Of a stretch of 59,409 bases of DNA, positions 4,464-44,613 are shown in pieces. The stretch comes from an uncultured Geobacter sp. (GTDB taxonomy: Bacteria > Desulfobacterota > Desulfuromonadia > Geobacterales > DSM-12255): the NCBI GenBank assembly GCA_964432205.1, contig CAYSMK010000032.1:1-59409 (forward strand), given 5' to 3'. The position numbers and the translations under genes were made by a program. How positions within the stretch are numbered: position 1 is the stretch's first letter; the number at the start of each line of letters is the position of its first letter. The notes under the pieces were generated by a model, which saw only the letters and a list, made by a program, of their open reading frames with translations, searched no databases and was not told the origin of the DNA.

Positions 4464-4590
4464 ATTCCCGATATCAGAAACGCCACTGCGACCGGGCCGG
4501 CGGCGCATGGTCCTCCGACATCTGAACGGCAGTTACCGGGACGATGCGGTCAGGGGCATGTGTTCCTCACCGGGTTCTGACGAAGGTCAT

Positions 4591-6111: not shown

Positions 6112-6182
6112 CATGAAGTAACAATATGGAGTCTGCCGGATGTCTGCGTTCAGTCTTTCAATTCAACAGAAGGAGTATCACA

Positions 6183-7232: not shown

Positions 7233-7256
7233 CCTTCTGGATAAAGGAATCTTGTC

Positions 7257-21118: not shown

Positions 21119-21364
21119 TTGAAGCGGTTGGACGCCTGCCTTCTCGGCCTGACAGACGGCTTGCCGTCAGGAGTAAAAAAGCTCAAGAACAGCGACGGGC
21201 TGTACCGGGTCCGAGTGAGCGATTTTCGCATTATCTCCCGCATCGAGCAGGAATTCTATGGCCTTATCTCAACGACCGTACCATTCGGCGCTATCTTGGC
21301 AATTTCCTCTATTTCTTCGTCTGTTACGGCAATACACCCTTTCGTCCAGTCAGCCTCTGTGTGA
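21119..21364 (+). pseudogene. RelE/ParE-family toxin remnant
   Basis: KKLKNSDGLYRVRVSDFRIISRIEQE matches the RelE/ParE core (K.L..g...lyRvRvGdyRiiY.i.de). The expected C-terminal HR(K/R)xxY is absent. No antitoxin ORF upstream. The 3' part overlaps the L,D-transpeptidase gene. Confidence 0.3.
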
Positions 21365-22206
21365 AAGTCACCAACCCACGAGAAACCATTCTTGATTCCG
21401 TGGATCATGATGTTTCCGCCCGGAGAAACACCCAGTTCTTTTGCCCGCCTCTTGTCTCTCTCGTTTGGATAGGAAATATGAAGTGACAGGTGATACTGGC
21501 TGTCCTTGTTTCTTGAATCGATGAAGTAGGTTCCCTCCGGGGTTTTGTTATCGCCTTGCCTTTCCTTGGGACCATCAGGGTTTCCCCCCAAGGCTATCTT
21601 GTAGGTCTTGAGCACCTCACCCTTTGAGATCAACATCAAGCGTCGTGCATTTTTTTCTATCAGAATCTTATCTATTGATCCTATCTGGATTGCATAGGCA
21701 AAAACCTTTTTATCGAGCGCTTCAATCTGTTTTTGCAGTGTAGTGATTTCATTCTCCTTGCCTTTAACATCTTGCCGGAGAGCCTCAATTTGTGCTTGCT
21801 GCGTAGTAATCAACTTATCCTTGATGGTGACGTTATTGATGTAAAATATCATCATCTCACTGTTCTGCCGGTACCCGCTATCTGGATAATCCTTTACGAG
21901 TTTTTGAAAACATTCCAGTGATTTCTGATAATCTTTTTGCTCGTTCTTCGGATACGCATAAATAATACCCATCTCAAAAAGAACCCTGTCCGTGGTCGTG
22001 GGATATTTTTCTATAATCTGCTCATACATGTTCAAAGAGGCCTTATAGCTTCCCTGACTAAAAAGAGCATTCGCTTCTTCGAAGGTGGACTTGGCCTGAT
22101 ATACTTCATTGAAGTGGCTGCATCCACATAGTAACATTGGTGTTATCATGATGCAGATACAGAAAAAGTACCGGTGCACACCCATCCTGCTTCGTTTCTT
22201 ACCCAT
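21256..22206 (-). CDS. L,D-transpeptidase (YkuD domain) lipoprotein with TPR-like and coiled-coil N-terminal region
   Basis: Lipobox LLCGC. YkuD catalytic region ...HISYPNERD...GNIMIHG...TKGCIAV (His/Cys dyad). Low GC. Confidence 0.8.
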   Translation of the reverse strand: MGKKRSRMGVHRYFFCICIMITPMLLCGCSHFNEVYQAKSTFEEANALFSQGSYKASLNMYEQIIEKYPTTTDRVLFEMGIIYAYPKNEQKDYQKSLECFQKLVKDYPDSGYRQNSEMMIFYINNVTIKDKLITTQQAQIEALRQDVKGKENEITTLQKQIEALDKKVFAYAIQIGSIDKILIEKNARRLMLISKGEVLKTYKIALGGNPDGPKERQGDNKTPEGTYFIDSRNKDSQYHLSLHISYPNERDKRRAKELGVSPGGNIMIHGIKNGFSWVGDFHTEADWTKGCIAVTDEEIEEIAKIAPNGTVVEIRP

Positions 22207-22446
22207 ATATGCCGAAAACGGTCTGAATCTGTTAGACCGTACCATTTGAAAGATTTTCAGTTCCCTCATCCTCACTCCTTGGCAGAAGCATCAGGAATAC
22301 AGCCTGATATCCTGGCTTAACAGGTCAATTGCGTGCATGGTCCTGACAGAGTCAACTGATGCATAATGAAATGGCAGGGTTCTGAGACCCTGCCATTTCA
22401 TTATCCGGAACACTAAAGGTAAAGTTGACAGCTCCCTGAAATCGAC

Positions 22447-22746
22447 TTACTTCTTCATCGATTTCTGGAAAACGGCCTCGGCCTTCTTCGCCTTTTCATC
22501 TGCGATCCTTTCCCTCTCCTCTGCCAGCTTTACAGCATTTTCGGCGCGGGCTGATGTTTCATCTGCCTTTACCTTTGCCGCATCGGCCGAAGCCTTGGCG
22601 GCTTGCGCATCCTGCAGTGCCTGCTCAGCTTTCGCATTAATCAGATTTTGCTGCGCCTGCACTTTCTCGAGGTCACCGGATGTTGCACAACCAATCATAG
22701 TAGCGAGGACAAGCATCATTGAGATCACCAAAAGACTTTTCTTCAT
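22447..22746 (-). CDS. Lpp-like alanine-zipper lipoprotein with C-terminal Lys-Lys
   Basis: Signal plus lipobox (ATMIGC). Mature part is an Ala/Gln/Lys heptad coiled coil (AQQNLINAKAEQALQDAQAAKASADAAKVKADE...). Ends ...QKSMKK. About 75 mature residues. Confidence 0.65.
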   Translation of the reverse strand: MKKSLLVISMMLVLATMIGCATSGDLEKVQAQQNLINAKAEQALQDAQAAKASADAAKVKADETSARAENAVKLAEERERIADEKAKKAEAVFQKSMKK

Positions 22747-22827
22747 CTCACATCACCTCCTTTCTGTTCAATTTGCCTTCGTAACGTTCACCACATCTCC
22801 CCAAAACATGGGAAAAAGCAGGATCGA

Positions 22828-24096
22828 CTATCCCTTCTTCACAGGTTCAATCAATATACCGTCTATTTCCAAATCAATTTTCAAGCGTTTGGCTGCATCT
22901 TTGGCCTCACTGATATCATTGAACGGGCCAGCAATAACACGGTGGTTATCGCTCTTTGACAATACCCTTGCCGGGATTTGTGGGCCCTGATGGTTGATAA
23001 TGGCGGCAATCCTCAGAGCCTCAATTTTGTCTCGCAGATCAGCAGCCAAAACATACCATGCCTCCAGTTTCAGTTCCGGTAGTTCCGGTCTGCCATACAA
23101 TGTGTCCGGGTGCTCTACTTCTATGGTTTTCGCAGCCTCTTTTTCACTTCCTTGACTCATCTCGAAGATGGGAACAGGAATGCCTCGGCCCTCGGCCTGT
23201 ACTTCCTTGACTTTTTTCCAGTCAAGCGTGCGTACCAACTTCTTCTCAAAATTTCTCAATTTCGCATATATCTTCTCCAGTTCAATGGCGCCAGAGTCCT
23301 CCAGAGGCGTATGGGCTTCCATGTAAAGTACTCCATCACGTTGGCCTATGAGATATGGCTGATTGACAATGAGTACAGAGGTATTAACCGGAGTGTCGTT
23401 GAAGAGCATCTCCACGTTTTCCGGATAGAGTCTCAAGCAGCCATTGGATGCATTAAGACCAATGCTGGCCGGTTTATTGGTGCCGTGGATCAAATAACCC
23501 GATTTGCTTAAATAGAGCGCATATTCTCCCAAGGGATTTTGAGGTCCCGGCGGGACTTCTGCAGGCAAGAGATCTCCTTTTTTTCGATGGTCCTCAGCAA
23601 TTGAAGCAGGCACATGCCAGGTCGGCCGGGTTGCCTTGCGCGCCACACGCATTTGGCCCGTGGGGGTGGGCCGTTCTTTGGTCCCGACGCCGACCGGGTA
23701 GGTCGACACCACCAGTGACTTCTTATCCTCCTTGAATTGAAAGAGCCTCTTGGTTGCCAGGTTGACCACAATGCCTTTCCGAGGAGCGTCCGGCAGGATA
23801 AAATTCAGAGGCAGTATGATGCGCTCTCCGGCCTCAGGCACCCATACATCTGTCCCTGGATTGGCTGTACTGATCTCATTGATCCCCAACCCGAAGTGTC
23901 GTGCGATGTCCGGTAGCGTATCCCCCTTTTCCAGCCTGATGACTGCCAACTTGCCAATGACGTCATCTCCTTTTGCAACTGAAAACGTAGTTCGTTCGAT
24001 ATCCTTTTCAAGATGGCTCGGAAGAAGCCATGCGTTCTCCTGAGCCCTCTTCATGGCACATCCATTGAGAGCTACGATGAATACACATAGAGCCAT
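22828..24096 (-). CDS. LysM + L,D-transpeptidase (YkuD) + C-terminal SPOR-like domain lipoprotein
   Basis: Lipobox ALNGC. LysM (GDTLPDIARHFGLGINEI). YkuD (LIHGTN...SNGCLRL). C-terminal SPOR-like (RVIAGPFNDISEAKDAAKRLK). Confidence 0.8.
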   Translation of the reverse strand: MALCVFIVALNGCAMKRAQENAWLLPSHLEKDIERTTFSVAKGDDVIGKLAVIRLEKGDTLPDIARHFGLGINEISTANPGTDVWVPEAGERIILPLNFILPDAPRKGIVVNLATKRLFQFKEDKKSLVVSTYPVGVGTKERPTPTGQMRVARKATRPTWHVPASIAEDHRKKGDLLPAEVPPGPQNPLGEYALYLSKSGYLIHGTNKPASIGLNASNGCLRLYPENVEMLFNDTPVNTSVLIVNQPYLIGQRDGVLYMEAHTPLEDSGAIELEKIYAKLRNFEKKLVRTLDWKKVKEVQAEGRGIPVPIFEMSQGSEKEAAKTIEVEHPDTLYGRPELPELKLEAWYVLAADLRDKIEALRIAAIINHQGPQIPARVLSKSDNHRVIAGPFNDISEAKDAAKRLKIDLEIDGILIEPVKKG

Positions 24097-24302
24097 AAGA
24101 CGAAGCCAATTGGATAACAGTGACAGTTCAACGATTCGGCACATGGGTTTAATAGGTACCTTTCTCAACTATGAAATACCCCGGGCATCAGTTTCTCTAC
24201 GTCATCAAGACAACCAACTTGCTGTCAAACAATGTTCACCCTTGCGACGCTTTGTTGACTGCAACTTCTCCTTGAGATGGTTCCCCGCAATTGGTGTCCG
24301 GA

Positions 24303-24414
24303 CACAAAAAAGCCGGGGCCGAAGATAAGGTGACATTTCGGCAACCCGGCTGTCTCAGTGAGACCCTATAGGCTTTCCGCCCCACCCTCGCGGATGGTTG
24401 AGTATTATCGTTTA
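24303..24414 (-). ncRNA. structured RNA element copy 1 (ends in an intrinsic terminator). Candidate sRNA or cis-leader upstream of the LysM-LDT gene.
   Basis: Minus-strand reading: GNRA-capped hairpin CCAUCC-GCGA-GGGUGG, hairpin GUCUC-ACU-GAGAC, then GC-rich two-tier hairpin AGCCGGG...CCCGGCU followed by UUUUUUG at the 3' end (about 24303). Confidence 0.45.
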
Positions 24415-24520
24415 CCACCAACCGTTTTAATGCCGTTTCCCGTCACCGACGCGAACCGACATACTACGGCGCCCCGTAAAGGCGCACCTCTTGCTGACTC
24501 GAGCTCCTCTTATGTTTTGA

Positions 24521-24632
24521 CAACAAAAAAGCCGGGGCCTAATATCGCGTGATATTTCGGCAACCCGGCTGTCTCAGTAAGACCCGTAGGCTTTCCGCCC
24601 CATTCTCGCGAATGGTTAAGTATTATCGTCTA
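24521..24632 (-). ncRNA. structured RNA element copy 2 (about 85% identical to copy 1) with candidate sigma-70 promoter
   Basis: Same three hairpins with compensatory changes (CCAUUC-GCGA-GAAUGG versus CCAUCC-GCGA-GGGUGG in copy 1). Terminator hairpin plus U6. On the minus strand just upstream, TTGACA-N16-TAGGAT (about 24652-24680). Confidence 0.5.
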
Positions 24633-25258
24633 TCTCTCAAAAATTTTTTCGCATCCTACAATTCTATAAGGATTTGTCAACATATTTCTAACGTCGAGTT
24701 AAGGAACCAGCGGATTCGGGCAATGCCCTGCACACTGCAACCACAACGTTTTCGCGATGTTGGCAAGACCGCTCATTGCCATGACTGAAGACTACATGGG
24801 GCAGCAAGGGGGCGTTGTTCCCTTGATCCGGAGCTGTTACCGAGCATGACAATGTATCTCCCGCCAACGCCGGGAACCTGGCCGGCAGGTTGACAACATG
24901 GCAGGATAAGGCGTATAGTAAAAATGTGGAAAGAGTAAAGGCTTTCCATCCTGAGGCTCTGGAAAAACGGATTAAAACCCGAAAAATCTAGAGCCTTTCG
25001 TTTTGCCCGCAGATGGAGAAGAGGGTCGAATCTCAGTCCCGTGAGGCATCAACAACGAGGGTAACTGCCTCTCATGTTCGATCCGGACTCACGTTGATAA
25101 TTCCCACCATATTCCGCGGCAGCCGCAAGGATAGCCACTGTTCGGTTGCCCGCCTGCCCCCCCCGGCTGAGAAGCCGGCCACGGGATTTTTTGTTGTCCG
25201 GGTGCCGTATTGCTGTTACCTTACACCCAAGAAAGCAGGTTGAAGCTCGAGAGAGGAT

Positions 25259-25720
25259 GTGCCGGTGAGCAATTCCTTACATCTCGTCATATTCTCGCTG
25301 GACGAACAGAGCTATGCGCTGCATCTGTCCGCAGTTGAGCGCACAGTTCGCATGGTGGCGATCACCCCGCTGCCGAAAGCACCCGAGGTGGTCTTAGGAG
25401 TAATAACCGTGCAGGGGCGGATCGTGCCCGTCCTGAACATGCGCCAGCGGTTCCGCCTGCCATCCCGCGAAGGACGGCTCTCCGACCATATCCTCATCGC
25501 CCGCACCAAGCACCGCACCGTTGCCTTTATTGCAGATGCCGTCAACGAAGTGACCGAGATTGCGGAGCAGGAAATCGTCGAGCCATCGACGATTCACCCT
25601 GGCCTGGAACATGTGACCGGGGTGACGAGGCTCAATGACGGTATAATCTTCATCCACGATCTGGACGGTTTCCTCTCCCGGGACGAGGAAATTGCCCTCG
25701 ATGCAGCCGTCGCCCCATGA
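25259..25720 (+). CDS. cheW: CheW-like coupling protein
   Basis: Single CheW domain (LVIFSLDEQSYALHLSAVERTVRMV...VLGVITVQGRIVPVLNM). Confidence 0.85.
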   Translation: MPVSNSLHLVIFSLDEQSYALHLSAVERTVRMVAITPLPKAPEVVLGVITVQGRIVPVLNMRQRFRLPSREGRLSDHILIARTKHRTVAFIADAVNEVTEIAEQEIVEPSTIHPGLEHVTGVTRLNDGIIFIHDLDGFLSRDEEIALDAAVAP

Positions 25721-27228
25721 GATCTCACCTGTCGGAACAGTTGCTGGCAGGGCTCAGCGAGTTCGTAACCTCTCGTTTCGGCCTCCATTTCCCGCCCAAG
25801 CGCTGGCGGGATCTGGAGCGGCGCATCGGGCCGGCAGCCCGCGACTTCGGCTTCAAGGACGTGGCAGACTGTGTCGCGTGGCTCATCACGACAACACCCA
25901 CGCCGGAACAGACCGAAATACTGGCGCGTCAGTTAACGATCGGCGAAACATACTTCTTCCGCGAGCAGAAGAGCTTCGAGGCCCTGGAAAGAACCATACT
26001 CCCCGAATTGATCGGGGCACGACGAGGTAAGGACCAGCGGCTGCGGATCTGGAGCGCCGGCTGCTCAACCGGTGAAGAGCCGTATTCACTGGCCATCCTC
26101 CTCAGCCGGCTCATCCCCGACCTGAACGGGTGGAACGTTACGATCCTGGCCACGGACCTCAATGCCCAGGCCGTTGCCAGGGCGAGGCGGGGGATATACA
26201 GGGACTGGTCCTTCCGTGGCACCGCTGCCTGGCTGAAGGAGAAGTACTTCTCCCGAACCGGGGACGGCGGCTTCGAGATACACGCCGCCATCAGGAACAT
26301 GGTCACCTTTGCCTGCCTCAATCTGGCGGAAGATAGCTATCCGTCATTGTCAAACAACACCAACGCCATAGATGTCATCTTCTGCCGCAACGTCCTGATG
26401 TATTTCGAAGCCGAGCAGGCCCGGCAGGTCATCGGCAGCTTCCGCCGGGCACTCCTGGCCGGCGGCTGGCTGGTGGTGAGCCCCTGTGAAACGTCAGCCG
26501 ATTTTACGGGGTTCGCGACGGTTCCCTTTCCGGAAGCACTGTTGTACCGGAAAGTCGGCGATGGGTGGACTGTGCCGGCTATGCCGTTTCCTGAGGCGGC
26601 CGGCGAGGCGGTGATCATTCCGCCCCACCTGCCGGAGCAGGTTTGGGCACCACCGTCAGGTCTCTCCCCGTTGCCGTCGCCGCCACCGGCAGAGGAAACG
26701 GCATCGACTTCGGACCTGGACGAGGCCGAGGCGCTCTACCGTGAGGGGCGTTACGCGGAGACGGCAGATACGCTGGCAGCGTTCGTGGCGATGGGGTTGC
26801 CGGAAGGCAGACTGTTATGTTCATACGGCAAAGCGGCCGCCCTGCTGGCCCGCACCTTTGCCAATCTGGGGAGGCTCAGTGATGCGCTTCTCTGGTCGGA
26901 AAAGGCGATTGCCGCGGCCAAGCTCGACCCGGGGCTCCATTATCTGCGGGCCACGATCTTCCAGGAGTTGGGGGAGCCTGAAAAGTCAATTGTCTCCCTG
27001 AGGCGTGCCATCTACCTGGACCATGGTTTTGCGCTTGCCCATTTCGCTCTGGGGAACCTTACGCTCAAACTGGGGAAGAGCCGGGAGGCGGACCGGCACT
27101 TCGGCAACGCCCTGGAACTGCTTCGGACACATCCGGCCGGGGAGCCCCTGGACGGTGCAGAGGGGATCACGGTCGCACGGCTGACCGAGATTGTCACCAC
27201 CTTGCGGGAGAGCACCGGCGTACGGTGA
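25717..27228 (+). CDS. cheR: CheR methyltransferase fused to C-terminal TPR repeats
   Basis: CheR N-terminal helical domain plus SAM-MTase (RIWSAGCSTGEEPYSLAILL, VIFCRNVLMYF). C-terminal TPR-like repeats. Confidence 0.9.
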   Translation: MRSHLSEQLLAGLSEFVTSRFGLHFPPKRWRDLERRIGPAARDFGFKDVADCVAWLITTTPTPEQTEILARQLTIGETYFFREQKSFEALERTILPELIGARRGKDQRLRIWSAGCSTGEEPYSLAILLSRLIPDLNGWNVTILATDLNAQAVARARRGIYRDWSFRGTAAWLKEKYFSRTGDGGFEIHAAIRNMVTFACLNLAEDSYPSLSNNTNAIDVIFCRNVLMYFEAEQARQVIGSFRRALLAGGWLVVSPCETSADFTGFATVPFPEALLYRKVGDGWTVPAMPFPEAAGEAVIIPPHLPEQVWAPPSGLSPLPSPPPAEETASTSDLDEAEALYREGRYAETADTLAAFVAMGLPEGRLLCSYGKAAALLARTFANLGRLSDALLWSEKAIAAAKLDPGLHYLRATIFQELGEPEKSIVSLRRAIYLDHGFALAHFALGNLTLKLGKSREADRHFGNALELLRTHPAGEPLDGAEGITVARLTEIVTTLRESTGVR

Positions 27229-27239
27229 CCGTTTAAACC

Positions 27240-27430
27240 CAAAAACGGCAGTTGAACGGGTCCAAAGAGAGCGACTTTCCCCGAAGCGTTGTGGCTCTAG
27301 GCGAAATGGAGCGTAAAGCAGCCGGATTGTCTGAACCCGCAGGGTGAGTTTCCGGCTGTAGCGAAATGAACCGTAGAGCCACAGCTGAAGGGGAATCGGA
27401 GCGATCGTGGGCTCCTTCAACTGCCGCATA
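27240..27430 (+). promoter_or_regulatory. structured intergenic leader with two homologous sub-motifs, enclosed by a 10-bp inverted repeat (candidate riboswitch-like or processing element)
   Basis: GGCAGTTGAA (27248-27257) pairs with TTCAACTGCC (27417-27426). Inside are two related modules: TAGGCGAAATGGAGCGTAAAGCAGCC and TAGCGAAATGAACCGTAGAGCCACAGC. The segment GCGUAAAGC-AGCCGG...CCGGCU loosely resembles the ACGCAAAGC-CUCCGG junction of GEMM-I. Confidence 0.3.
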
Positions 27431-27453
27431 TAGGTAAAAGGAGCTGCTGAGCC

Positions 27454-28080
27454 ATGGAAGCACACCCAAAGGATCGCGCTGCAGGAGAGAAAAAAGGGAT
27501 CGACTGGGACGATCTGCACCGTCGCCTCGCAGCAGCCCGCCAGAACATCAATCGGGAGATGACCCCGGCGGAGCGAAAAGAGACCCTGAAGGCGCGGGCC
27601 AAAACACTGGCCGGCGAGTCGGTCGAAGGGGAGTCGGTTACGGAGCAGTTGGAGGTGCTGGAGTTCCGCCTTGCCTACGAGACCTACGGCATCGAGATGA
27701 CCCACGTTCAAGAAACCGCTCCATTGAAGGAATTGACGCCGGTCCCCGGCACCCCGGCCTTCGTGCTCGGCCTGATCAACCTCCGCGGCCGGATTCTGTC
27801 CGTCATCGACATAAAGAAGTTCTTCGACCTGCCGGAAAAGGGACTTACCGACCTGAACAAGATCATCGTCCTTCATGGTGAAGGCATGGAGTTCGGCCTC
27901 CTGGCGGACGAGATCCTCGGGGTGCGGTCGATTTCCAGGGATGAGATGTACCCCTCCCTCCCCACCCTGACCGGAGTCCGGGAGGAGTACCTGCTGGGGG
28001 TCACCGGCGAGCGGACAGTGCTCCTGGACGGGCACAAGCTTTTGAACGACGAACACCTTGTCGTTAACAACGAAGAGTAA
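27454..28080 (+). CDS. cheW: CheW-like coupling protein
   Basis: CheW domain (FRLAYETYGIEMTHVQE...VLGLINLRGRILSVIDI). Confidence 0.9.
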   Translation: MEAHPKDRAAGEKKGIDWDDLHRRLAAARQNINREMTPAERKETLKARAKTLAGESVEGESVTEQLEVLEFRLAYETYGIEMTHVQETAPLKELTPVPGTPAFVLGLINLRGRILSVIDIKKFFDLPEKGLTDLNKIIVLHGEGMEFGLLADEILGVRSISRDEMYPSLPTLTGVREEYLLGVTGERTVLLDGHKLLNDEHLVVNNEE

Positions 28081-28173
28081 CCCACCTGCGTTCCTCCCCT
28101 TATGACAAGAGGGGGTCAGGGGAATTATGAATGACCTATAGCGGCACATCAGGTGCCGACGAGCTGTTAGTCC

Positions 28174-29814
28174 ATGAAGAAAGGAAGCCCCGGAATGATC
28201 ACTAACATGCGGATAGGAGCGCGCCTGTTCCTCAGCTTTGCGATTGTCATCGTGCTGCTGCTGGGAGTCGGGGGGTATTCGCTGAACCGGATGGAGCTCC
28301 TGGCGGGATTCACAACGGAGCTCTACGAGCACCCGTTCACGGTCAGGAAGTCGATGCGCGATGCCTACCTCAATCTGTTGAAGATGAACTTTACCCTGAC
28401 CCAACTGGTTTCATCCCCAAACGCTGCCACCGTTGCCGGCCAGCTGCAGGTGGTCAACGAATCGGAGAAGGAGTTCATGAGGAACATGGCCCTCGTCAAG
28501 GAGCGCTTTCTCGGCAAACAGACCGAGGTGGACGAGGTCGTCAGGTCTTACGACGAGTGGAAGCCGTTACGCGACCAGGTGATCGCACTCGTCCTCGCCA
28601 AACAGCAGGCGAAGGCAAAGGCGCTCATGAACGGCGCCGAGGCGAAACTCTTTGCCAAGATGGACAAGGAGGCCGCGGATGTCCTCACCTTTGCCGACAA
28701 CAAGGCGACCTCCTTCATGAAGCATGCCCAGGACACGGCAAAGAGTTCGCTGATCCTGGTCGCCCTGACCATAGCTACCGCCCTGGTCATGGTCATTGTG
28801 GTGGCAGTCACCCTTACCCGCAGCATTACCGCCCCGCTGCGTGCGGCCGTAGGTATGGCCGCCCGGGTTGCCGACAACGACCTGACCGTGACACTCCCTG
28901 CTGCCAGCGGCCGCGACGAATTCAGCCTGCTCCTTCAGACCTTCGGCCGGATGGTGGGTAACCTTCGCCAGCAGACGCAGGAGATTCAGGAGGGGGTGAA
29001 CGTGCTTGCCGCCTCGGCCGGTGAGATCCTGGCCTCGACGAGCCAGGTCGCATCCAGCGCGGCGGAGACTGCGAGCGCAGTGAACGAGACGACCGCCACC
29101 GTCGAAGAGGTGAAGCAGACCACCCAGATGGCAAGCCAGAAGGCCCGGCTCGTGGCAGACACCGCCCAGCGCTCCCTTCAGGTCTCCCAGAGCGGCATGA
29201 AATCGGTTGAGGACTCCATAGAGGGGATGAACAGGATCAGGGAGCAGATGGCGACCATTGCCGAAAGCATCGTGAGCCTGAGCGAGCAGAGTCAGGCCAT
29301 CGGCGAAATTATTGCCTCGGTGAACGACCTGGCCGAACAGTCGAACCTCCTCGCCGTCAACGCCTCCATCGAGGCGGCCAAGGCGGGGGAACACGGCAAG
29401 GGGTTTGCCGTGGTTGCCCAGGAGGTGAAGAGCCTTGCCAACCAGTCCAAGCAGGCCACGGCCCAGGTGCGGGGGCTGCTGAACGATATCCAGAAGGCGA
29501 CCAATGCGGCGGTGATGGCGACGGAGCAGGGGAGCAAGGCTGTCGAGGCCGGCGAGAAACAGGCCTTGGAGGCCGGGGAGTCCATCCGGCTGCTGGCGGG
29601 AAGCATTTCCGAGTCGGCCAACGCGTCGTCACAGATCACGGCTACCAATCAGCAGCAGTTGGTCGGCATGGACCAGGTGGCCCTGGCCATGGAGAACATC
29701 AGCGAGGCGAGTACCCTGAGCGTCACCAGTACCAGGCAGTCGGAGATCTCGGCGCAGAACCTCAACGAACTGGGGCAAAAGTTGAAGCGGCTGGTGGACC
29801 AGTTCAAATTGTAG
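28174..29814 (+). CDS. methyl-accepting chemotaxis protein (two TM segments, HAMP, MCP signalling domain)
   Basis: Periplasmic helical sensor between TM segments. HAMP. Conserved MCP hairpin ([57 protein letters not shown]). Confidence 0.9.
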   Translation: MKKGSPGMITNMRIGARLFLSFAIVIVLLLGVGGYSLNRMELLAGFTTELYEHPFTVRKSMRDAYLNLLKMNFTLTQLVSSPNAATVAGQLQVVNESEKEFMRNMALVKERFLGKQTEVDEVVRSYDEWKPLRDQVIALVLAKQQAKAKALMNGAEAKLFAKMDKEAADVLTFADNKATSFMKHAQDTAKSSLILVALTIATALVMVIVVAVTLTRSITAPLRAAVGMAARVADNDLTVTLPAASGRDEFSLLLQTFGRMVGNLRQQTQEIQEGVNVLAASAGEILASTSQVASSAAETASAVNETTATVEEVKQTTQMASQKARLVADTAQRSLQVSQSGMKSVEDSIEGMNRIREQMATIAESIVSLSEQSQAIGEIIASVNDLAEQSNLLAVNASIEAAKAGEHGKGFAVVAQEVKSLANQSKQATAQVRGLLNDIQKATNAAVMATEQGSKAVEAGEKQALEAGESIRLLAGSISESANASSQITATNQQQLVGMDQVALAMENISEASTLSVTSTRQSEISAQNLNELGQKLKRLVDQFKL

Positions 29815-29830
29815 GAACACCAGATTTGAC

Positions 29831-32107
29831 ATGACCATGGACAAAGAGTTTCATACCAGGCTGCTGGAAACGTTCCGCATCGAGACGCGGGAACGTCTCG
29901 ATGCCGTTGCCGCAGCACTTATCACATTGGAGAAGAGTGCGGCAGACGAGCAGGTGCAGGAGATCGTCGAGGCGCTCTTCAGAGAGACCCACAGCCTGAA
30001 GGGTGCTGCCCGCTCGGTGGGGATCGAGCCGGTGGAATCGGTCAGCCACGGGCTGGAGAGTGTATTCTCGGCCCTGAAGCGCGGAGAAATCGCCCCATCG
30101 CCAGCCCTGTTCGATCTCTTTCACGCAGCGGTCGATCTGATCGGCCAGCTTCTCCGCTCTCTCGGCGCGGAACCGCTGCCCGGAATCAATGAGCGCCTGC
30201 GGCAACTCAACCGCCGACTGCAGCTCGCCGTCCAGGGCCACCTTCCCTCTGGCCCACCCAAGACCCCGCCAAGGGTGGACGCACCTGAAACGACCGGCGA
30301 CAGACATGATGCTCCGAAGACCGTGCGGATTGCCGCAGAGAAGCTGGAAGCCGTACTGCGGCAGACCGAAGGGATGCTGGCGGCAAAACTGGCGGCAGGC
30401 CAGCGTGCCGAGGATCTGCGCGGGCTTGGAATGATGCTCGTCCAGTGGGAGAAGGAGTGGAAGGGTATCCTGCCGGTTCTGCGGCGCGTTCGCCGCGGCC
30501 GGCAGCCGGCTGCCCGGAGTCGTACTGACCTGCCTGCAGGAGCGGGAGAAGAGACCTTCGCCCCTGTTCTTGATTTCCTCGATTCGAACCACGCCACATT
30601 CAAGACGCTGGCCCACCATCTGGACCTGGTGACGCAGGCGACAGAGCGCGACCACCTGCATCTGGGCGACATGGTGCAGGCAGTCCTGGAAGACGTGCGC
30701 GAGGCGATGATGCTGCCGTTCTCGTCCCTGCTGGCTATTCTTCCGAAGAGTGTCCGCGACCTGGCCAGGGACCGGGGGAAAGAGGTAGATCTGGTCGTGG
30801 CGGGTGAGTCGATCGAGATCGACCGCCGCATTCTGGAGGAGATGAAGGACCCGTTTGTCCATCTGGTGCGCAACTGCGTTGATCACGGAATCGAACGCCC
30901 ATCCGAACGGGAGCGACAGGGCAAGCCCCCCCGCGGCACCATTTCCGTCTCCCTGACGCTACTCCCCGGCGATCGTGTCGAGATCATTGTCGCCGACGAT
31001 GGCGCCGGCATAGACAGTGCCCGCCTGCGGCGGGCCGCGGCACAGCTGGGACTCTCCTCCCCCGGGGAGGCGGAGCGGCTCTCCGAGGCAGAACTGCTCC
31101 CGCTCGTCTTCACGTCCGGCTTGAGCACCAGCCCGATCATCGACGACATCTCCGGCCGGGGGCTGGGCCTGGCCATTGTCCGGGAAAAGGTGGAGGGGCT
31201 CGGCGGGACCATAGCCGTGGAGAACACCCCTGGACGGGGAACAATCTTCCGCATCACCATCCCTCTTACCCTTTCCACCTTCCGGGGAATCCTGGTGGAG
31301 ACGGCCGGGCAGATGTTCGTGGTGCCGACCGCAGACGTGGAACGAGTGACCAGGCGGGATAAGAGGGAGATCGTCACCGTGGAGAACCGGGAAACCATCG
31401 AACTGGACGGCGAACCCCTCTCGTTTGTCCTTCTGGGGGATGTCCTGGAACTGCCGCGGCGGGAGCGACAAGCGGACGAAACCGAGCAGGTCTCACTGTT
31501 CGTGCTCACCGCGGACCGGGGGAGGATCGCTTTCGGCGTGGACAGGGTGCTCGGCGAACAGGAGGTGGTGGTCAAGGGGCTCGGCAGACAGCTCAGGCGT
31601 GTGCGGAACGTTGCCGGCGCCTCGGTGCTGGGGACCGGGAAGGTGGTGCCTATCCTGAACAGCCGCGATCTGGCCGGGTCGGCGGTCAGGGTTGCCGCTG
31701 CCGGAGCCGGTATCCCCCGCGGAGCAGCTGACGAGGCGACAACTCCCGGCACACTCCTGGTGGTGGAGGACTCCATCACCGCCCGGACCCTGCTGAAGAA
31801 CATCCTGGAGGGGGCCGGCTATCTGGTCAGGACCGCGGTTGACGGAATCGATGCCCTGACCGTGCTGAAGACAGAGCCGGTCGATCTGGTGGTTTCGGAC
31901 GTTGACATGCCGCGGCTGAACGGCTTCGAACTCACCGGCAGGATCCGCGGTTTACGGGAGTTTGCCGACCTGCCGGTGGTGCTCGTTACCTCACTCGACT
32001 CCCGCGAGGACCGGGAGCGGGGAATCGACGTCGGGGCCAATGCATACATCGTGAAGAGCAGCTTTGACCAGAGCAATCTCCTGACCGTGATCCGGCAGCT
32101 GCTATAG
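29831..32107 (+). CDS. cheA: CheA histidine kinase with C-terminal receiver domain (CheA-REC hybrid)
   Basis: Hpt (ETHSLKGAARSVG). HATPase_c (G-boxes GRGLGLAIV). CheW-like domain. C-terminal REC (LLVVEDSITAR...VVSDVDMPRLNGFEL). Confidence 0.9.
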   Translation: MTMDKEFHTRLLETFRIETRERLDAVAAALITLEKSAADEQVQEIVEALFRETHSLKGAARSVGIEPVESVSHGLESVFSALKRGEIAPSPALFDLFHAAVDLIGQLLRSLGAEPLPGINERLRQLNRRLQLAVQGHLPSGPPKTPPRVDAPETTGDRHDAPKTVRIAAEKLEAVLRQTEGMLAAKLAAGQRAEDLRGLGMMLVQWEKEWKGILPVLRRVRRGRQPAARSRTDLPAGAGEETFAPVLDFLDSNHATFKTLAHHLDLVTQATERDHLHLGDMVQAVLEDVREAMMLPFSSLLAILPKSVRDLARDRGKEVDLVVAGESIEIDRRILEEMKDPFVHLVRNCVDHGIERPSERERQGKPPRGTISVSLTLLPGDRVEIIVADDGAGIDSARLRRAAAQLGLSSPGEAERLSEAELLPLVFTSGLSTSPIIDDISGRGLGLAIVREKVEGLGGTIAVENTPGRGTIFRITIPLTLSTFRGILVETAGQMFVVPTADVERVTRRDKREIVTVENRETIELDGEPLSFVLLGDVLELPRRERQADETEQVSLFVLTADRGRIAFGVDRVLGEQEVVVKGLGRQLRRVRNVAGASVLGTGKVVPILNSRDLAGSAVRVAAAGAGIPRGAADEATTPGTLLVVEDSITARTLLKNILEGAGYLVRTAVDGIDALTVLKTEPVDLVVSDVDMPRLNGFELTGRIRGLREFADLPVVLVTSLDSREDRERGIDVGANAYIVKSSFDQSNLLTVIRQLL

Positions 32108-32144
32108 TTTTCCTACCCCTCCTGACCACCGGAAAGAACAGATA

Positions 32145-33191
32145 ATGATCAACGTACTGATAGCGGATGATTCGGCCAGCGTGAGGCTCTTTCTCAGTCA
32201 GCTCCTCTCCGCTGATCCCGACATAGAGGTGGTTGGCACCGCGGGTGATGGGGAGGAGGTCCTGGAAGCCGTTGCCCGGTTGCGGCCGGATGTCATCACC
32301 ATGGATGTCCACATGCCGCGGATGAACGGGCTCGTCGCCACCCGCCGGATCATGGAGACAGTTCCGACTCCCATTGTCATCGTCAGCGGCAACCTCGATG
32401 CGGAAGAGGTGGCAACCACGTTCCACGCCCTGGATGCGGGAGCCGTGGCCGCCCTGCCTCGTCCCCATGGCGCCGGGCATCCGGATCACGAGTGGGAAGC
32501 GAAGGCTTTTGTGCAGACCGTCAAGCTGATGGCGGAAGTCAAGGTGGTCCGCCGTTGGGCCAGGCCTGCCGAAGGGCCGCCCCCCAAATCCGTTCCCCGC
32601 CCCTCTATCGCTGAAGCGCAGGCGGAGATCGGAGTGGTGGCTATCGGTGCTTCCACCGGCGGACCGCAGGTGATACACACCATCCTGGACGGCCTCCCTC
32701 GGGATTTCCCGGTGCCGATTCTTATCGTTCAGCATATGGCGGCCGGCTTCCTGGAAGGGTTCGTGACGTGGCTCAGCGGCACGTCAGGGGTAGTGCCCTG
32801 CCTGCCGGTAGATGGTGAACGACTTCTCCCCGGTCGCGCCTATATCGCTCCTGACGGCTGCCATATGGAAGTGACCGTCGACCGGACCATTGCCCTGCAA
32901 CGGACCCCCCCGGAAAACGGCCTTCGCCCATCTGTTGCCGCCCTTTTCCGTTCAGTTGCCGGGGTTTATGGGGAGAAGACGATAGGAGTCCTTCTTACCG
33001 GGATGGGAACTGACGGCGCGCAGGAACTGCGCCTGATGAAAGAACGGGGAGCGATCACGATTGTGCAGGACCCGGAGAGTTCGGTCGTTCACGGAATGCC
33101 CGGTGAGGCACTGAAACTCGGGGCCGCGATGTATACCATTGCGCCGGAGACAATAGTGTCTGTATTGAAAAGACTGACAATGGGGAAATGA
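32145..33191 (+). CDS. cheB: CheB methylesterase/response regulator
   Basis: REC (VLIADDSASVR...DVITMDVHMPRMNG) plus CheB esterase (VVAIGASTGGPQ...GMGTDGAQEL). Confidence 0.9.
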   Translation: MINVLIADDSASVRLFLSQLLSADPDIEVVGTAGDGEEVLEAVARLRPDVITMDVHMPRMNGLVATRRIMETVPTPIVIVSGNLDAEEVATTFHALDAGAVAALPRPHGAGHPDHEWEAKAFVQTVKLMAEVKVVRRWARPAEGPPPKSVPRPSIAEAQAEIGVVAIGASTGGPQVIHTILDGLPRDFPVPILIVQHMAAGFLEGFVTWLSGTSGVVPCLPVDGERLLPGRAYIAPDGCHMEVTVDRTIALQRTPPENGLRPSVAALFRSVAGVYGEKTIGVLLTGMGTDGAQELRLMKERGAITIVQDPESSVVHGMPGEALKLGAAMYTIAPETIVSVLKRLTMGK

Positions 33192-34450
33192 CCAGGCAAG
33201 GGGATACCATGGCAGCGAGATCATCCGGGGCAGCAATCCTCATCATTGAAGACAGCCCTACCCAGGCCGAGCAACTGCGGTATATGCTGGAGAAAAACGG
33301 CTACCGCACGTCCGTATCCGGCAACGGCCGCGAGGCCCTCACCCTGTTTCCCGAGATGAGGCCGTCGCTCGTCATCAGCGATATCATCATGCCGGAGATG
33401 GACGGTTACGAGTTGTGCCGGCAGATAAAAGAAACGTGTGGTGATCTGAAGACCCCGGTCATGCTTCTCACCTCCCTCGCCGACCCTCACGATGTCATCA
33501 GGGGACTGGAGTGCGGTGCTGACGCGTTCATAACAAAACCGTATGAGGAAGAGTACCTGCTTTCCCGCATTGACTACATGTTGACCAACCGTTCACCATG
33601 TCGCCGGGGAACGTCTGATGATGGGCTGGCCATCGAGTTCGGCGGCCAGGAATACTGCATAACAGCCGACCGACGACAGGTTCTCGATCTTCTGCTCTCC
33701 ACATACGAAACCGCCATGCAGAAAAACACCGAACTGATCAAGGCCCGTGACGAGATGACTCGGCTCAATGAGCAGTTGGAAACGGCCAACCGCGATCTGG
33801 AGGCCTTCAACTACACCGTCTCCCACGACCTGCGCGGCCCGCTTACCAATATCAGCGGATATTCTCAGGCTCTCCGCGACATATACGCCGACACACTCGA
33901 TGAACAGGCCAAAGACTTCATCAAGGAGATCTATCAGGCGACTCTGCGGATGGATAAAATGATAGGGGCGCTGTTGAACTTTGCCAAGATGAACCACCGG
34001 GTCTTGAACGTGGAAACGGTCAACTTGAGCATGCTGGCTCTTGCGGTGGCAACCGACCTGCGCTACCGGGATAGGCAACGGACTGTCAATTTCACCATTG
34101 CCGAGGGAGTCATGGCCAAAGGTGACTCAATGTTGCTCCAGGTGGTACTGCAAAACCTCATCGGCAATGCATGGAAATACACCGGGAAAAGGGAAAGGGC
34201 CGAGATCATTTTCGGGGTAACTGAAACATGCGGAGAACGCACCTACTTCGTCCGGGACAATGGCGCCGGGTTTGACATGGACCAGGCCGATCGGCTGTTC
34301 GATGCATTCGAACGTCTCCACAGCAGGGAGGAATTCGAAGGGAGCGGCATTGGCCTGGCTACGGTACAGCGGATCATCCAGCGCCACGGCGGGACGATCT
34401 GGGCGGAAGGGGAAGTGGATCGGGGAGCAACGTTCTATTTCACCCTTTGA
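33188..34450 (+). CDS. hybrid response regulator-histidine kinase (REC + HisKA + HATPase_c)
   Basis: REC (ILIIEDSPTQAE...VISDIIMPEMDG). H-box VSHDLRGPLTNISGY. N/G boxes (NLIGNAWKYT, GSGIGLATV). Confidence 0.85.
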   Translation: MTRQGDTMAARSSGAAILIIEDSPTQAEQLRYMLEKNGYRTSVSGNGREALTLFPEMRPSLVISDIIMPEMDGYELCRQIKETCGDLKTPVMLLTSLADPHDVIRGLECGADAFITKPYEEEYLLSRIDYMLTNRSPCRRGTSDDGLAIEFGGQEYCITADRRQVLDLLLSTYETAMQKNTELIKARDEMTRLNEQLETANRDLEAFNYTVSHDLRGPLTNISGYSQALRDIYADTLDEQAKDFIKEIYQATLRMDKMIGALLNFAKMNHRVLNVETVNLSMLALAVATDLRYRDRQRTVNFTIAEGVMAKGDSMLLQVVLQNLIGNAWKYTGKRERAEIIFGVTETCGERTYFVRDNGAGFDMDQADRLFDAFERLHSREEFEGSGIGLATVQRIIQRHGGTIWAEGEVDRGATFYFTL

Positions 34451-39420: not shown

Positions 39421-39505
39421 AGGTAAAGGTAGAGGCAAAGGTAAAGAACTGCAGGGTAACAGAAGTTCTTTACCTCTACCTTTACCTCTGCCTTTACCTC
39501 TGCCT
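39421..39505. repeat. heptad-repeat (GGTAAAG/CTTTACC) palindrome forming a long hairpin; probable terminator of the upstream LolA-like genes
   Basis: Left arm of GGTAAAG-type heptads and right arm of CTTTACC heptads around the loop GCAGGGTAACAGA. Central 11-bp perfect stem AGTTCTTTACC. Confidence 0.5.
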
Positions 39506-40219
39506 ATTGTCTATGACCTGCACCCCTTGCGGGACCTTGAAGTTGAACCGTTCGCTCCCCATCCCCCGGTTCACCTTAACGTTATGGTACTCGATGACGG
39601 TCCGGTTCCCCATCTGGTCGTAGAGGATTGATGAGATGATCGGAAAGAGGACCTGCGGCTTGCCGCTGGCCCGAAACTGCTCCACCGCGTCCCCCGCCAC
39701 GGTCAGCTGAAGTCTGGCGACGGCCGGTGTCGGCTTCTTGGGGAGCAGTTCCAGCGTGTAATCACCCTTCCGGTCCGGCACCTGGCCGGCAAAACGGATG
39801 GTGAAGTCCTGGGAGAGGCGGCCGAGGCCGGTCAGGTAACTCATGGCGATGGCATTGCCGCCGGCAAAGAGGGCAGCGGCATCGCTCACCATGACCTGGC
39901 TATTCTCCTGCTGGTAAAACCAGACCGTTTTCCCGTCACAGACGATCTGCTGCTTCGGCTTGGCATAATTGAAGCGAAACAGCGGGTGCGCCCCCTTGCC
40001 CTTTTTCAGCAGGAGTTCGCCGCTTCCCTTCTCTTCGCGCTTGATGGCACTGATGGTGGTCCGCTGGCTGAAGCCGGCCTGCAGGTCGTGCAGTGCGCCA
40101 TAGCCTGTTTCCAGGGTGGCGACGACCTCCCGGAGCGTAGCAACGGGTGCGGCCGCAGCCGGTATGGCCAGAGCGGCGACAAGCGCCGCGGTCAACATAA
40201 AGCTGAAAAACCTGAACAT
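39494..40219 (-). CDS. LolA-like outer-membrane lipoprotein carrier family protein (paralogue 1)
   Basis: Signal peptide then LolA-like beta-barrel pattern ([10 protein letters not shown]...[27 protein letters not shown]...[10 protein letters not shown]). Confidence 0.7.
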
Positions 40220-40290
40220 TATGAAATCCTTGTATGAAGGGAAGATAAACCCTCCCCTCCGCCGGTCACACCCATGTACGGTCGGCCCGC

Positions 40291-42816: not shown

Positions 42817-42819
42817 GGG

Positions 42820-43215
42820 CTACCCCCTGCCTTTTTCGGCAACCGGCTGAAACAGGGCGGCAATGGCGGCTTCCAGGCGGGAAAGGAGCGTCTGCGGATC
42901 GATCGGGGTGGCAGCGGGATCGCCCGTCACCACCAACTGCTCCACACCGGTCACCAGCAGGGCGAGCGCTGCGACTTTCCGATCGAACAACAGGCAGTGG
43001 GAAGGGGGATCTGCAGCGGGAATCTCCAGGAAACGGGCAAGATCCACGGCAGCGGTAAGTTCACCGTGCAGCGAGCAGACGCCGACGAGCCAGTCCGGCG
43101 CCCGGGGAACCGGGGAACAGGCCGGCACCGGCAGGAGTTCAACCACCGCGGCCACCGGCAGAAGGTAGCGTGCCTCGCCGATACGCACCAGGAGGCAGTG
43201 TTCGCCAGCAGTCAT
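42820..43215 (-). CDS. cheW: CheW-like coupling protein
   Basis: Single CheW domain. Start overlaps the upstream MCP stop. Confidence 0.8.
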
Positions 43216-44495: not shown

Positions 44496-44514
44496 GGAAG
44501 GCCCTCCGGGGGAG

Positions 44515-44613
44515 TGCTGCGTTCAGCGTGCTGCGTGAAGTCTAGCGTGCGCGACGGGATATGCAATTCTCATCGCACGTTTAACCCTGAACGCAGCACG
44601 CTGAACGCTGAAC
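44515..44613. repeat. 19-bp inverted repeat (18/19 match) in the cheR-MCP intergenic region
   Basis: TGCGTTCAGCGTGCTGCGT ... ACGCAGCACGCTGAACGCT separated by about 55 nt. Potential long hairpin in the operon mRNA. Confidence 0.7.

Follow-up and report, generated by a model that had tools for sequence, protein, structure and literature searches.

The window, which is the whole stretch of DNA that was analysed (59,409 nucleotides of contig CAYSMK010000032.1 from an uncultured Geobacter sp.), contains on its minus strand, between positions 24303 and 24700, two RNA units of approximately 110 nt each, both of them closing with a hairpin that is followed by U6. They precede three genes on the same strand (Table 1), in which an L,D-transpeptidase (LDT) with a SPOR domain, a Braun-lipoprotein-like (Lpp-like) protein and a TPR-containing LDT follow one another, a composition that suggests a role of the operon in cross-linking outer-membrane lipoproteins to peptidoglycan. 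The product of the first gene has a signal peptide with the lipobox ALNGC; its homologues of 439 aa are 77–87% identical to it, and the LDT of Geobacter sp. OR-1 is 86% identical. A preliminary description of this locus had labelled this protein a LysM-L,D-transpeptidase-SPOR protein; the YkuD and SPOR domains hold, and LysM is borderline, with 20.6 bits against the Pfam cut-off of 20.9. The translation of the second gene ends in KSMKK, i.e., with a C-terminal Lys. Translation of the third gene probably begins internally, at the Met near 22185, for a protein of 309 aa. No GGDEF-type (Hypr) cGAMP synthase was found among the larger open reading frames of the window that were scanned.

Table 1. 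Features of the tandem riboswitch locus and of the operon that follows it (positions in the window)
Feature	Position	Strand	Evidence or content
Sigma-70-like promoter	24653..24680	-	Consensus scan, 10/12 matches; TTGACA 24680-24675, N16, TAGGAT 24658-24653
Aptamer 1 (upstream), GEMM-I/GEMM-Ib type	24556..24631	-	RF01051, full length
Expression platform 1, intrinsic terminator	24525..24570	-	Folding; two-tier stem 24570-24531, U6 24530-24525
Spacer between riboswitch units	24414..24524	-	Poorly conserved, unit vs unit and genome vs genome
Aptamer 2 (downstream), GEMM-I/GEMM-Ib type	24337..24413	-	RF01051
Expression platform 2, intrinsic terminator	24306..24351	-	Folding; stem 24351-24312, U6 24311-24306
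Remaining 5' UTR	24148..24305	-	Ribosome-binding region GAGAAAGGTACC before ATG at 24147
Gene 1, lipoprotein L,D-transpeptidase (weak LysM, YkuD, SPOR)	22828..24147	-	Pfam YkuD 1.1e-22, SPOR 4.5e-09
Gene 2, Braun-lipoprotein-like protein	22447..22746	-	Pfam Alanine_zipper 8.2e-13; lipobox MIGC
Gene 3, TPR-containing lipoprotein L,D-transpeptidase	21256..22275	-	Pfam YkuD 6.9e-19 and TPR domains; lipobox LLCGC

The start codon of the first gene is likely the ATG at 24147, which is preferred because the 439-aa homologues and the lipoprotein signal peptide start there. The distances of 135 and 350 nt from the terminators to the start codon given previously are right when counted from the TTG at 24168; from the likely ATG they become 159 and 378 nt. 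Orthologous loci, even ones that lack a riboswitch, also have a GAAAGGTACCTTAT motif ahead of the start codon. At the other end of the leader, the putative promoter precedes aptamer 1 by about 22 nt. The TTGACA-N16-TAGGAT element noticed earlier ahead of one copy is indeed present, before the upstream unit. The only other match of the promoter scan on the minus strand (9/12) overlaps this same element, and the scan returned no promoter-like site before unit 2. The two units constitute a tandem riboswitch arrangement: two sets of aptamer and terminator on one strand and in one UTR, behind one conserved promoter.

The two units are very similar to each other. Their identity is 87% over a 143-column alignment that includes the flanks, 85.7% for the aptamer plus 35 nt, and 95% for the 77-column aptamer alone, in good agreement with the two tandem copies of about 110 nt and about 85% identity described before (86–87% by our count). 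The two aptamers differ at 4 of the 77 columns, the P2 internal loop among them, and none of the differences falls on a ligand-contact position. AAUACU and GGAAAGCC are motifs of these aptamers. The first hairpin reads CCAUUC-GCGA-GAAUGG in the upstream unit and CCAUCC-GCGA-GGGUGG in the downstream one, exactly the base changes that had been reported, of which one is two-sided (U-A to C-G) and the other one-sided (U-A to U-G). The second hairpin had been given as GUCUC-ACU-GAGAC for both copies, which is true of the downstream unit; the upstream unit has GUCUU-ACU-GAGAC with a U.G closing pair. Thus, the window by itself offers one true double compensatory change. The earlier proposal of selection on RNA structure is nevertheless correct, its strongest basis being the match to a covariance model and the conservation across genomes that are discussed below.

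The class of the RNA, which had been left unmatched in the preliminary description together with the suggestion of an Rfam scan, is provided by a search of the entire window (59 kb) with the 4227 families of Rfam. Both units match RF01051 (c-di-GMP-I / GEMM-I) above its gathering score of 35, with 49.4 bits (E = 1.1e-06) for unit 1 and 42.6 bits (E = 5.1e-05) for unit 2, and in both cases the match covers model positions 1–87 of 87. Hence, both units have the GEMM-I riboswitch fold. The c-di-GMP-I-GGC variant (RF03167) was rejected, as its scores of 50.9 and 42.3 bits lie below the gathering score of 59 and the window units have A/A/C where its consensus is G/G/C. In E-value mode, RF03167 slightly outscores RF01051. 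The units share with the canonical c-di-GMP-I riboswitch (Vc2, RF01051) the helix P1, the P1b hairpin with its GNRA loop, P2 with an AG bulge and the junction ACG..AAAGCC..GCCGAA. They differ from it by having A at the position equivalent to G20 of Vc2, by the pairs that close beside this position (C-G and U.G, against G-C and C-G in the consensus), and by a short P2, in which the variable stretch takes 3–4 nt instead of the 15–16 of the RF01051 model. The ligands of GEMM-I RNAs were assigned in 2008 for c-di-GMP and in 2015 for cGAMP.

The residues in contact with the ligand can be followed one by one. The equivalents in aptamer 1 are A24624 (Gs1761 A11), A24621 (A14, i.e., Vc2 G20), A24594 (A41, i.e., A47) and C24560 (C75, i.e., C92), and in aptamer 2 they are A24406, A24403, A24376 and C24341. 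Both A24621 and A24403 align with position 11 of the Rfam model, where the consensus is G, with high posterior probability. Unit 1 reproduces exactly the spacing published for Gs1761, with 27 nt from A14 to A41 and 61 nt from A14 to C75. The column equivalent to G20 is A in every aptamer that covers it (29 collected, 28 aligned; the aptamer of locus L017 is without the first 13 alignment columns). Alignment positions A8, A38 and C73 are likewise invariant in every collected aptamer with those columns, and their spacing fits that of A11, A14, A41 and C75 of Gs1761; the equivalents of the intercalating A (Vc2 A47) and of the ligand-pairing C (Vc2 C92) are present in both units and do not vary across the collection. 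The same GEMM-I fold, the A at the G20-equivalent and the equally spaced A11/A14/A41/C75 contacts are found in Gs1761 (pgcA, PDB 4YAZ) and in pilM of G. metallireducens. Those two have been analysed as single riboswitch units controlling cytochrome or pilus assembly genes, whereas at the window locus two units in tandem precede genes for peptidoglycan-lipoprotein cross-linking.

In the cases tested so far, c-di-GMP is associated with G at the discriminating position and cGAMP with A; selectivity for cGAMP requires A at position 20, although this A does not suffice for it. An A here marks the Geobacter subclass GEMM-Ib, which senses 3',3'-cGAMP, and we think that cGAMP would be the ligand of the window pair because of this signature and of the published data on a G. 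sulfurreducens locus with the same architecture. In addition, the host belongs to the Geobacteraceae and its operon has the composition of GSU0183-0181, which is in line with the occurrence of GEMM-Ib.

Each aptamer is followed by an expression platform that competes with it within the 5' UTR. Folding confirms that a GC-rich two-tier hairpin plus U6 ends each copy, as had been proposed, at -24.0 kcal/mol for terminator 1 (z = -4.9 against shuffles) and -23.7 kcal/mol for terminator 2 (z = -4.0). Neither was reported by a simple terminator scanner, since their long two-tier stems and loops exceed its limits. In both units, the 5' arm of the terminator, formed by the P2 3' strand plus GCCGAA, reuses the 3' strands of P2 and P1 of the aptamer and the ligand-pairing C, an overlap that is kept in 28 of 28 orthologous units; among these, columns 10 and 37 of the terminator covary between U-A and C-G. 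The ligand-bound fold pairs AGCC..CGGG with CCGGGUU (P2) and CG with CG (P1), and it excludes the terminator. Because of the shared strands, each unit appears to be a complete transcriptional ON switch, with the topology of the studied pilM cGAMP ON switch and of the original GEMM description; in Gs1761 and pilM as well, the ligand-pairing C and the 3' strand of the aptamer are taken up by the terminator. The three hairpins drawn for each copy in the preliminary description are present, but they represent the ligand-free, terminated (OFF) conformer and not the ligand-bound aptamer.

According to this scheme, transcription would begin at the sigma-70-like promoter just 5' of aptamer 1, and in the nascent RNA of each unit a bound cyclic dinucleotide would lock P1 and P2. 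When ligand is lacking, the strand GCCGGGUUGCCGAA would leave the aptamer and become the 5' arm of the intrinsic terminator, so that the polymerase would stop at the U6 tract. Since two units are passed in series, read-through would be approximately the product of two occupancies, and the tandem may thereby keep basal expression lower and respond to the ligand more steeply, in a more digital way. Such sharpening is suggested by what is known of other tandem riboswitches. Descriptions of GEMM-I riboswitches in tandem go back to 2007, and 347 doublets of the c-di-GMP-I class have been counted and read as giving a more digital response (Sherlock et al. 2022). The catalogued doublets and the c-di-GMP-I triplet of Bacillus thuringiensis consist, as in the window, of separate aptamer plus terminator units in one 5' UTR. 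The tandem TPP riboswitches of Bacillus anthracis seem to have a comparable arrangement (Welz and Breaker 2007, as cited in Weinberg 2007, the species being that of the reference title). In comparison with these known same-ligand tandems we see no difference in principle, and a pseudo-cooperative response of the window pair is to be expected.

The arrangement is conserved. The tandem pair with its promoter is also present before this three-gene operon in 10 further genomes among those sampled (11 with the window), and TTGACA-N16-18-TAnnAT stands at the matching position in 11 of 11 tandem loci. Full-length RF01051 matches above the gathering score amount to 24 aptamers in 13 related loci. In the loci sampled, the units are always directly upstream of the operon and on its strand, with a start-to-start spacing that goes from 129 to 220 nt. 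Of the 558 pair cells from 28 distinct sequences, 96.8% hold a standard pair, and sliding the partners lowers this share to 35–50%; 2 of 20 pairs, both in the GNRA-capped hairpin, show double changes, the support from covariation being thin because the aptamers are so highly conserved. Unit 1 shares 96% identity with the upstream copy of Geobacter sp. AOG1, and unit 2 is 95% identical to the downstream copy of that genome but only 86% to its own partner. In the window and its closest relative, each copy resembles its ortholog more than its partner, which makes the duplication an old one that was kept. The pair before the LDT-Lpp-LDT operon is conserved in the sampled genomes of Geobacter/Geotalea/Pelotalea/Desulfuromonadaceae type, and in the other lineages sampled the same operon is without it. 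In those riboswitch-less genomes, the operon has a conserved leader in common, in which RNAalifold detects no structure beyond a weak hairpin or palindrome of -4.7 kcal/mol and Rfam no alternative regulatory RNA. A megablast of window positions 22000–26000 against a plasmid collection gave no matches.

A counterpart has been studied in G. sulfurreducens PCA, where GSUR3002 and GSUR3001 ('GSU0183a/b') lie in tandem upstream of GSU0183-GSU0182-GSU0181 (Hallberg et al. 2019, eLife, PMC6456294). GSU0183 is a YkuD-SPOR protein, GSU0182 a lipoprotein, which has been termed 'murein lipoprotein' (PMC11934962), and GSU0181 a YkuD-TPR protein of 309 aa by the coordinates in eLife supplementary file 6 (PMC6456294). 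As in the window, two units, each about 115 nt long, follow one another directly upstream of LDT-lipoprotein-LDT genes and share their strand. The gene lengths are about 435/100/309 aa against 439/99/309 in the window (309 from the internal Met), the start-to-start spacing of the units is 199 nt against 218 nt, and about 30 nt separate the second unit from the start codon, against 159 nt in the window. The genome contig scan covered the best 80 loci, and G. sulfurreducens is absent among them; the correspondence of the window pair to GSUR3001/3002 is thus proposed from gene order, domain architecture, gene lengths and taxonomy rather than from an RNA alignment. In the absence of the cGAMP synthase GacA, GSU0183-0181 go down about 16-fold (log2 changes of -4.1 to -4.6), with expression values in wild type, esnD deletion and gacA deletion of 53/96/3 for GSU0183, 175/286/7 for GSU0182 and 128/219/6 for GSU0181 (PMC6456294). 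GSU0183 is one of the 13 GEMM-Ib transcripts listed for G. sulfurreducens, and the two operons under tandem control in this organism have the largest fold changes that the paper names (16-fold against 2–10-fold), an indirect sign that tandem pairs may respond more steeply.

Taking all this together, we consider it very probable that the locus holds two complete, independently acting GEMM-Ib (3',3'-cGAMP) riboswitches in series in the 5' UTR of the LDT-SPOR/Lpp-like/TPR-LDT operon. One of the alternatives raised at the outset, tandem cis-regulatory riboswitch-like leaders of a peptidoglycan-remodelling gene, was therefore the correct one, as judged from RF01051 and from the position before the operon. 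The same tandem ON architecture could serve c-di-GMP instead, or the aptamers could be bispecific or differ in selectivity and integrate c-di-GMP and cGAMP. In Rfam and in the genome annotation of G. sulfurreducens, such elements do go under the name of c-di-GMP riboswitches, Vc2 G20A and some natural GEMM-Ib aptamers (e.g., Cbe 1-2) bind both ligands via a protonated adenine, and the window aptamers are unlike at the few columns mentioned above, the P2 internal loop included. However, A and not G stands at the discriminating position in both aptamers and in the relatives that cover the column, the corresponding G. sulfurreducens operon drops 16-fold without GacA, and the esnD deletion, which lowers c-di-GMP according to the paper, raises this operon about 2-fold, the opposite of what a c-di-GMP ON switch would do. 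Differing selectivity, moreover, does not sit well with inter-copy differences that touch no ligand-contact position. We regard this possibility as unlikely. Doubtful to much the same degree is a non-redundant pair, i.e., a two-threshold or two-input gate that would couple outer membrane-peptidoglycan tethering to the cGAMP/c-di-GMP balance, with terminated leaders that might also buffer cGAMP. Affinity, folding kinetics or cross-reactivity with c-di-GMP could vary with the small differences that the two show in hairpin stability and in the P2 internal loop, and the two aptamers have been kept distinct since before the split between the window species and Geobacter sp. AOG1.

That the units act above all in trans, as two small RNAs of about 110–130 nt with terminators of their own, as had also been contemplated, is without support and seems to us very improbable. 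A precedent exists in Listeria, where terminated forms of SAM riboswitches have a trans-acting role. Furthermore, each unit has a strong terminator, and therefore short terminated RNAs must accumulate at low ligand; the riboswitch regions have in fact been detected as RNA in G. sulfurreducens. Yet the sole TTGACA promoter that is conserved across genomes precedes unit 1, with none scanned before unit 2, and the position and strand directly upstream of the same operon are constant. The units match a riboswitch aptamer model over its full length, downstream expression of the G. sulfurreducens counterpart follows the ligand synthase, and a trans target is neither known nor needed. It is harder still to believe in units devoid of a regulatory function that arose by chance duplication or as a dispersed repeat of the REP/MITE kind. 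Similar copies close together could look like one, and GEMM-I elements do number about 17 per Geobacter genome. Nevertheless, the 59-kb window has just these two copies, both in one UTR, that UTR being syntenic and its units fixed in strand in 16 genomes; neither terminal inverted repeats nor target-site duplications were seen in the sequence. With the preserved pairing described above and, for the window and Geobacter sp. AOG1, orthologous copies closer to each other than the copies within a genome, the dispersed-repeat explanation is refuted by copy number, synteny and ortholog similarity, and the earlier worry about a multi-copy repeat does not apply.

The pair of GEMM-Ib riboswitches in the window is, then, an ordinary, previously described element that is already known. 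Its value as a discovery is small, given that the class was described in 2007 and that the counterpart locus of G. sulfurreducens has been annotated and validated by RNA-seq. For the source genome, the gain is one of annotation: two riboswitches, a promoter and a corrected start codon for the LDT. In our opinion, the question that it raises for the biology of these bacteria is why a cGAMP signal that is tied to extracellular electron transfer would induce a Braun-lipoprotein-like protein together with two L,D-transpeptidases.

Both minus-strand units upstream of the L,D-transpeptidase (LDT) operon are c-di-GMP-I (GEMM-I, RF01051) aptamers. The Rfam scan that the preliminary description had called for, made over the whole window at curated thresholds (RF01051 gathering score 35), gave three matches only: these two and one tRNA. 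The earlier suggestion of riboswitch-like leaders was thus essentially correct, the class being the already known GEMM-I riboswitch. The variant model c-di-GMP-I-GGC scored marginally above RF01051 when compared in E-value mode (50.9 and 42.3 bits), and membership was rejected: both scores lie under its gathering score of 59, and the G/G/C signature failed because the window has A/A/C.

Coordinates of the features (window positions unless a locus encoding an LDT relative, L004 etc., is named)
Feature	Position	Strand	Details
c-di-GMP-I aptamer, upstream	24631-24556	minus	RF01051 49.4 bits, full length
c-di-GMP-I aptamer, downstream	24413-24337	minus	RF01051 42.6 bits, full length
GCGA-capped 6-bp helix		minus	CCAUUC/GAAUGG (upstream unit); CCAUCC/GGGUGG (downstream unit)
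Terminators, U6	24530-24525; 24311-24306	minus	two-tier GC-rich hairpin, then U6
A at G20-equivalent position	24621; 24403	minus	Rfam alignment
Alignment columns 34/71	24598/24562; 24380/24343	minus	upstream; downstream unit
Promoter-like TTGACA-N17-TAATAT	24517-24545	plus	10/12, antisense to terminator 1
Promoter-like site, strong	24890-24919	plus	chemosensory cluster 1
Third aptamer	L030:8517-8593	plus	81 bits (window covariance model), 41.4 bits (Rfam)
Alternative leader	L004:3869-4000; L012:2558-2690; L013:3871-4003; L014:3869-4003; L015:3911-; L018:3872-4003; L058:~3875-4006
rtcR	2698-4305	minus	flank of tRNA-like element
Sigma-54 promoter, near-consensus	4448-4463		TGGCACGGCAGTTGTA
tRNA-like element	4448-4667 (region that includes the promoter)	plus	Rfam 41.8 bits
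Band7-rtcA-rtcB	4972-8420	plus	flank of tRNA-like element
Chemosensory cluster 1	25259-34450	plus	CheW, CheR-TPR, MCP, CheA-CheW-REC, CheB, REC-HK
Chemosensory cluster 2	41218-45471	minus	CheA, MCP, CheR
Two adjacent LolA-like paralogues	39494-41100
DDE_3/HTH (IS630-like) transposase ORF	1256-2383	plus	near window left end

Re-reading of the sequence, alignment and folding bore out the two ~110-nt minus-strand units found by inspection at 24303-24700, with their helices, hairpins, terminators and promoter-like site. Besides the GCGA-capped helix, both contain the hairpin GUCU(U/C)-ACU-GAGAC and a terminator hairpin of about -24 kcal/mol (z = -4.9 and -4.0 against dinucleotide shuffles), and a promoter scan gave TTGACA-N16-TAGGAT 5' of the upstream unit. 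The units are 87% identical over 143 columns with flanks, 85.7% over the aptamer plus 35 nt, and 95% across the 77-column aptamer core. The differences in the capped helix had been described as compensatory, which holds for one position (U-A to C-G), whereas the other (U-A to U-G) is single-sided. The three-hairpin fold proposed previously is also the minimum free energy result, but it represents the ligand-free conformer and not the aptamer fold. The plus-strand match antisense to terminator 1 probably arose by chance, since the complement of the U-tract is A-rich.

In the aptamer fold, P2 is formed by AGCC..CGGGUC paired with GAC..CCGGGUU, and P1 by the 5'-proximal CG paired with the CG of GCCGAA. 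The terminator 5' arm, GCCGGGUUGCCGAA(AUAUC), therefore takes up the 3' strands of both P2 and P1 as well as the ligand-pairing cytosine. The two structures exclude each other, so ligand binding should block termination, and each unit is a complete riboswitch whose predicted direction is ON. The paper that first described GEMM (Weinberg et al. 2007) proposed such a competing layout, and the Geobacter pilM cGAMP riboswitch, with a like layout, has been analysed in detail; there, the terminator sequesters C75.

Many Geobacter GEMM-I riboswitches sense 3',3'-cGAMP (GEMM-Ib subclass), the discriminating change being an A (A14 of Gs1761) where Vc2 has G20. Both window aptamers carry this A. Moreover, positions 8, 11, 38 and 72 of the upstream aptamer are A, A, A and C, with spacing identical to the published ligand contacts of Gs1761 (A11, A14, A41, C75). 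The closest named relatives of the window LDT are from Geobacter sp. OR-1 (86%) and Geobacteraceae MAGs. From the A20-type signature and the Geobacteraceae host, we infer that the aptamers are of the cGAMP-sensing GEMM-Ib type.

The best 80 genomic loci encoding LDT relatives were searched with a covariance model built from both window aptamers, with Rfam confirmation. The three genes LDT, Lpp-like and TPR-LDT occur together in ~55 of them. A tandem pair lies directly 5' of LDT in 10 other genomes, including Geobacter sp. AOG1, Pelotalea chapellei and MAGs labelled Desulfuromonadaceae or Pelobacter; five further loci, including Geotalea toluenoxydans, have a single copy (one is cut by a contig end), and in the remaining lineages this search found no GEMM-I aptamer 5' of LDT. 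All 29 aptamers collected share the A20-type signature (L017 without its first 13 columns). Standard pairs fill 96.8% of pair cells, and the near-invariance of the aptamers leaves little covariation. The overlapping terminator is present in every unit with downstream sequence; at the sole free positions of its 5' arm, the nucleotides either bulge out or covary with those of the 3' arm (U-A to C-G). Every tandem locus keeps TTGACA-N16-18-TAnnAT 5' of its first aptamer. The window upstream copy is 96% identical to that of Geobacter sp. AOG1 but 86% to its own partner, and the downstream copies of both genomes are 95% identical; the duplication is thus old, with both copies maintained.

In the cross-genome alignment, column 34 (G/A in GGG[G/A]CGG) correlates almost perfectly with column 71 (U/C in GGGU[U/C]GCC), with one exception, the L032 downstream copy; column 71 also covaries with the terminator 3' arm. 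The link may be either a tertiary contact or merely shared ancestry. One MAG (L030) has a third, more divergent aptamer with the A20 signature ~1.7 kb 3' of the operon, followed by a stem-loop and UUUUAUAUUU, which is not a clean U-tract. In riboswitch-free lineages, another conserved leader, of ~130 nt, lies 5' of the operon, TTGGTATATATCAT...GATGGAATTGAGCCCTGCACATCAATTCGATCCAG...AAGAAAGGTACC; a scan of the set's loci other than L058 returned no Rfam match for it at gathering scores. RNAalifold gave a weak hairpin or palindrome only, so that this leader may be a promoter plus protein operator.

Elsewhere in the window, the leader of an rtc RNA-repair operon, ~500 nt long, contains the tRNA-like element. 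ARAGORN assigns it to tRNA-Gly, with an anticodon, ACC, that is unusual, and Rfam flags a non-standard pair in its acceptor stem. The sigma-54 promoter 5' of it adjoins rtcR, which encodes the sigma-54 activator RtcR. The arrangement is reminiscent of rsr-yrlA-rtcBA operons with their tRNA-like Y-RNA modules; the search gave no Y-RNA family match at E <= 1. Of the two separate chemosensory clusters, cluster 1 is divergent from the riboswitch operon.

The class is known, and the G. sulfurreducens counterpart locus, with the same tandem arrangement, is already characterised. That species has 17 GEMM-I riboswitches, several in tandem (Hallberg et al. 2019, PMC6456294). GSUR3002 (198075-197961) and GSUR3001 (197876-197761), labelled GSU0183a/b, are immediately 5' of GSU0183-0181 (PMC6456294 supplementary table), which encode a YkuD, SPOR lipoprotein (GSU0183), a lipoprotein (GSU0182) and a YkuD, TPR lipoprotein (GSU0181); the window operon matches their gene order, domains and lengths. 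Expression in wild type, esnD deletion and gacA deletion was 53/96/3, 175/286/7 and 128/219/6 for GSU0183, GSU0182 and GSU0181, respectively (PMC6456294), and GSU0183 is among 13 tabulated GEMM-Ib transcripts (Tan et al. 2022). Among the GEMM elements of deltaproteobacteria, one third are in tandem (Weinberg et al. 2007), and 347 c-di-GMP-I doublets have been catalogued and read as giving a more digital response (Sherlock et al. 2022).

Transcription from the conserved promoter would run into two ON switches in series, and read-through would need ligand at both. A lower basal level and a steeper response would be expected from this, consistent with the 16-fold change at two tandem-controlled G. 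sulfurreducens operons (PMC6456294).

Regarding the gene starts, the identical (100%) database entry for LDT (24054-24168 region, minus) has 408 aa, implying a start at ATG 24054, just past the lipobox Cys, as computed from the 446-aa ORF. The signal peptide MCRIVELSLLSNWLRLMALCVFIVALNG/C and 439-aa homologues indicate ATG 24147 instead, and thus the 408-aa call looks N-terminally truncated. In the region of the other two genes (21256-22746, minus), the TPR-LDT ORF that begins at GTG 22275 probably extends too far 5'; from an internal Met (MGVHRYFF...) it has 309 aa, the same length as GSU0181. Of the three operon products, two are lipoprotein L,D-transpeptidases and the third, of 99 aa, is Braun-lipoprotein-like, with lipobox MIGC, an alanine zipper and, as it ends in ...KSMKK, a C-terminal Lys like that of E. 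coli Lpp. Given what is established for Lpp and ErfK/YbiS/YcfS in E. coli, the composition of the operon points to a putative function in covalent outer membrane-peptidoglycan tethering.
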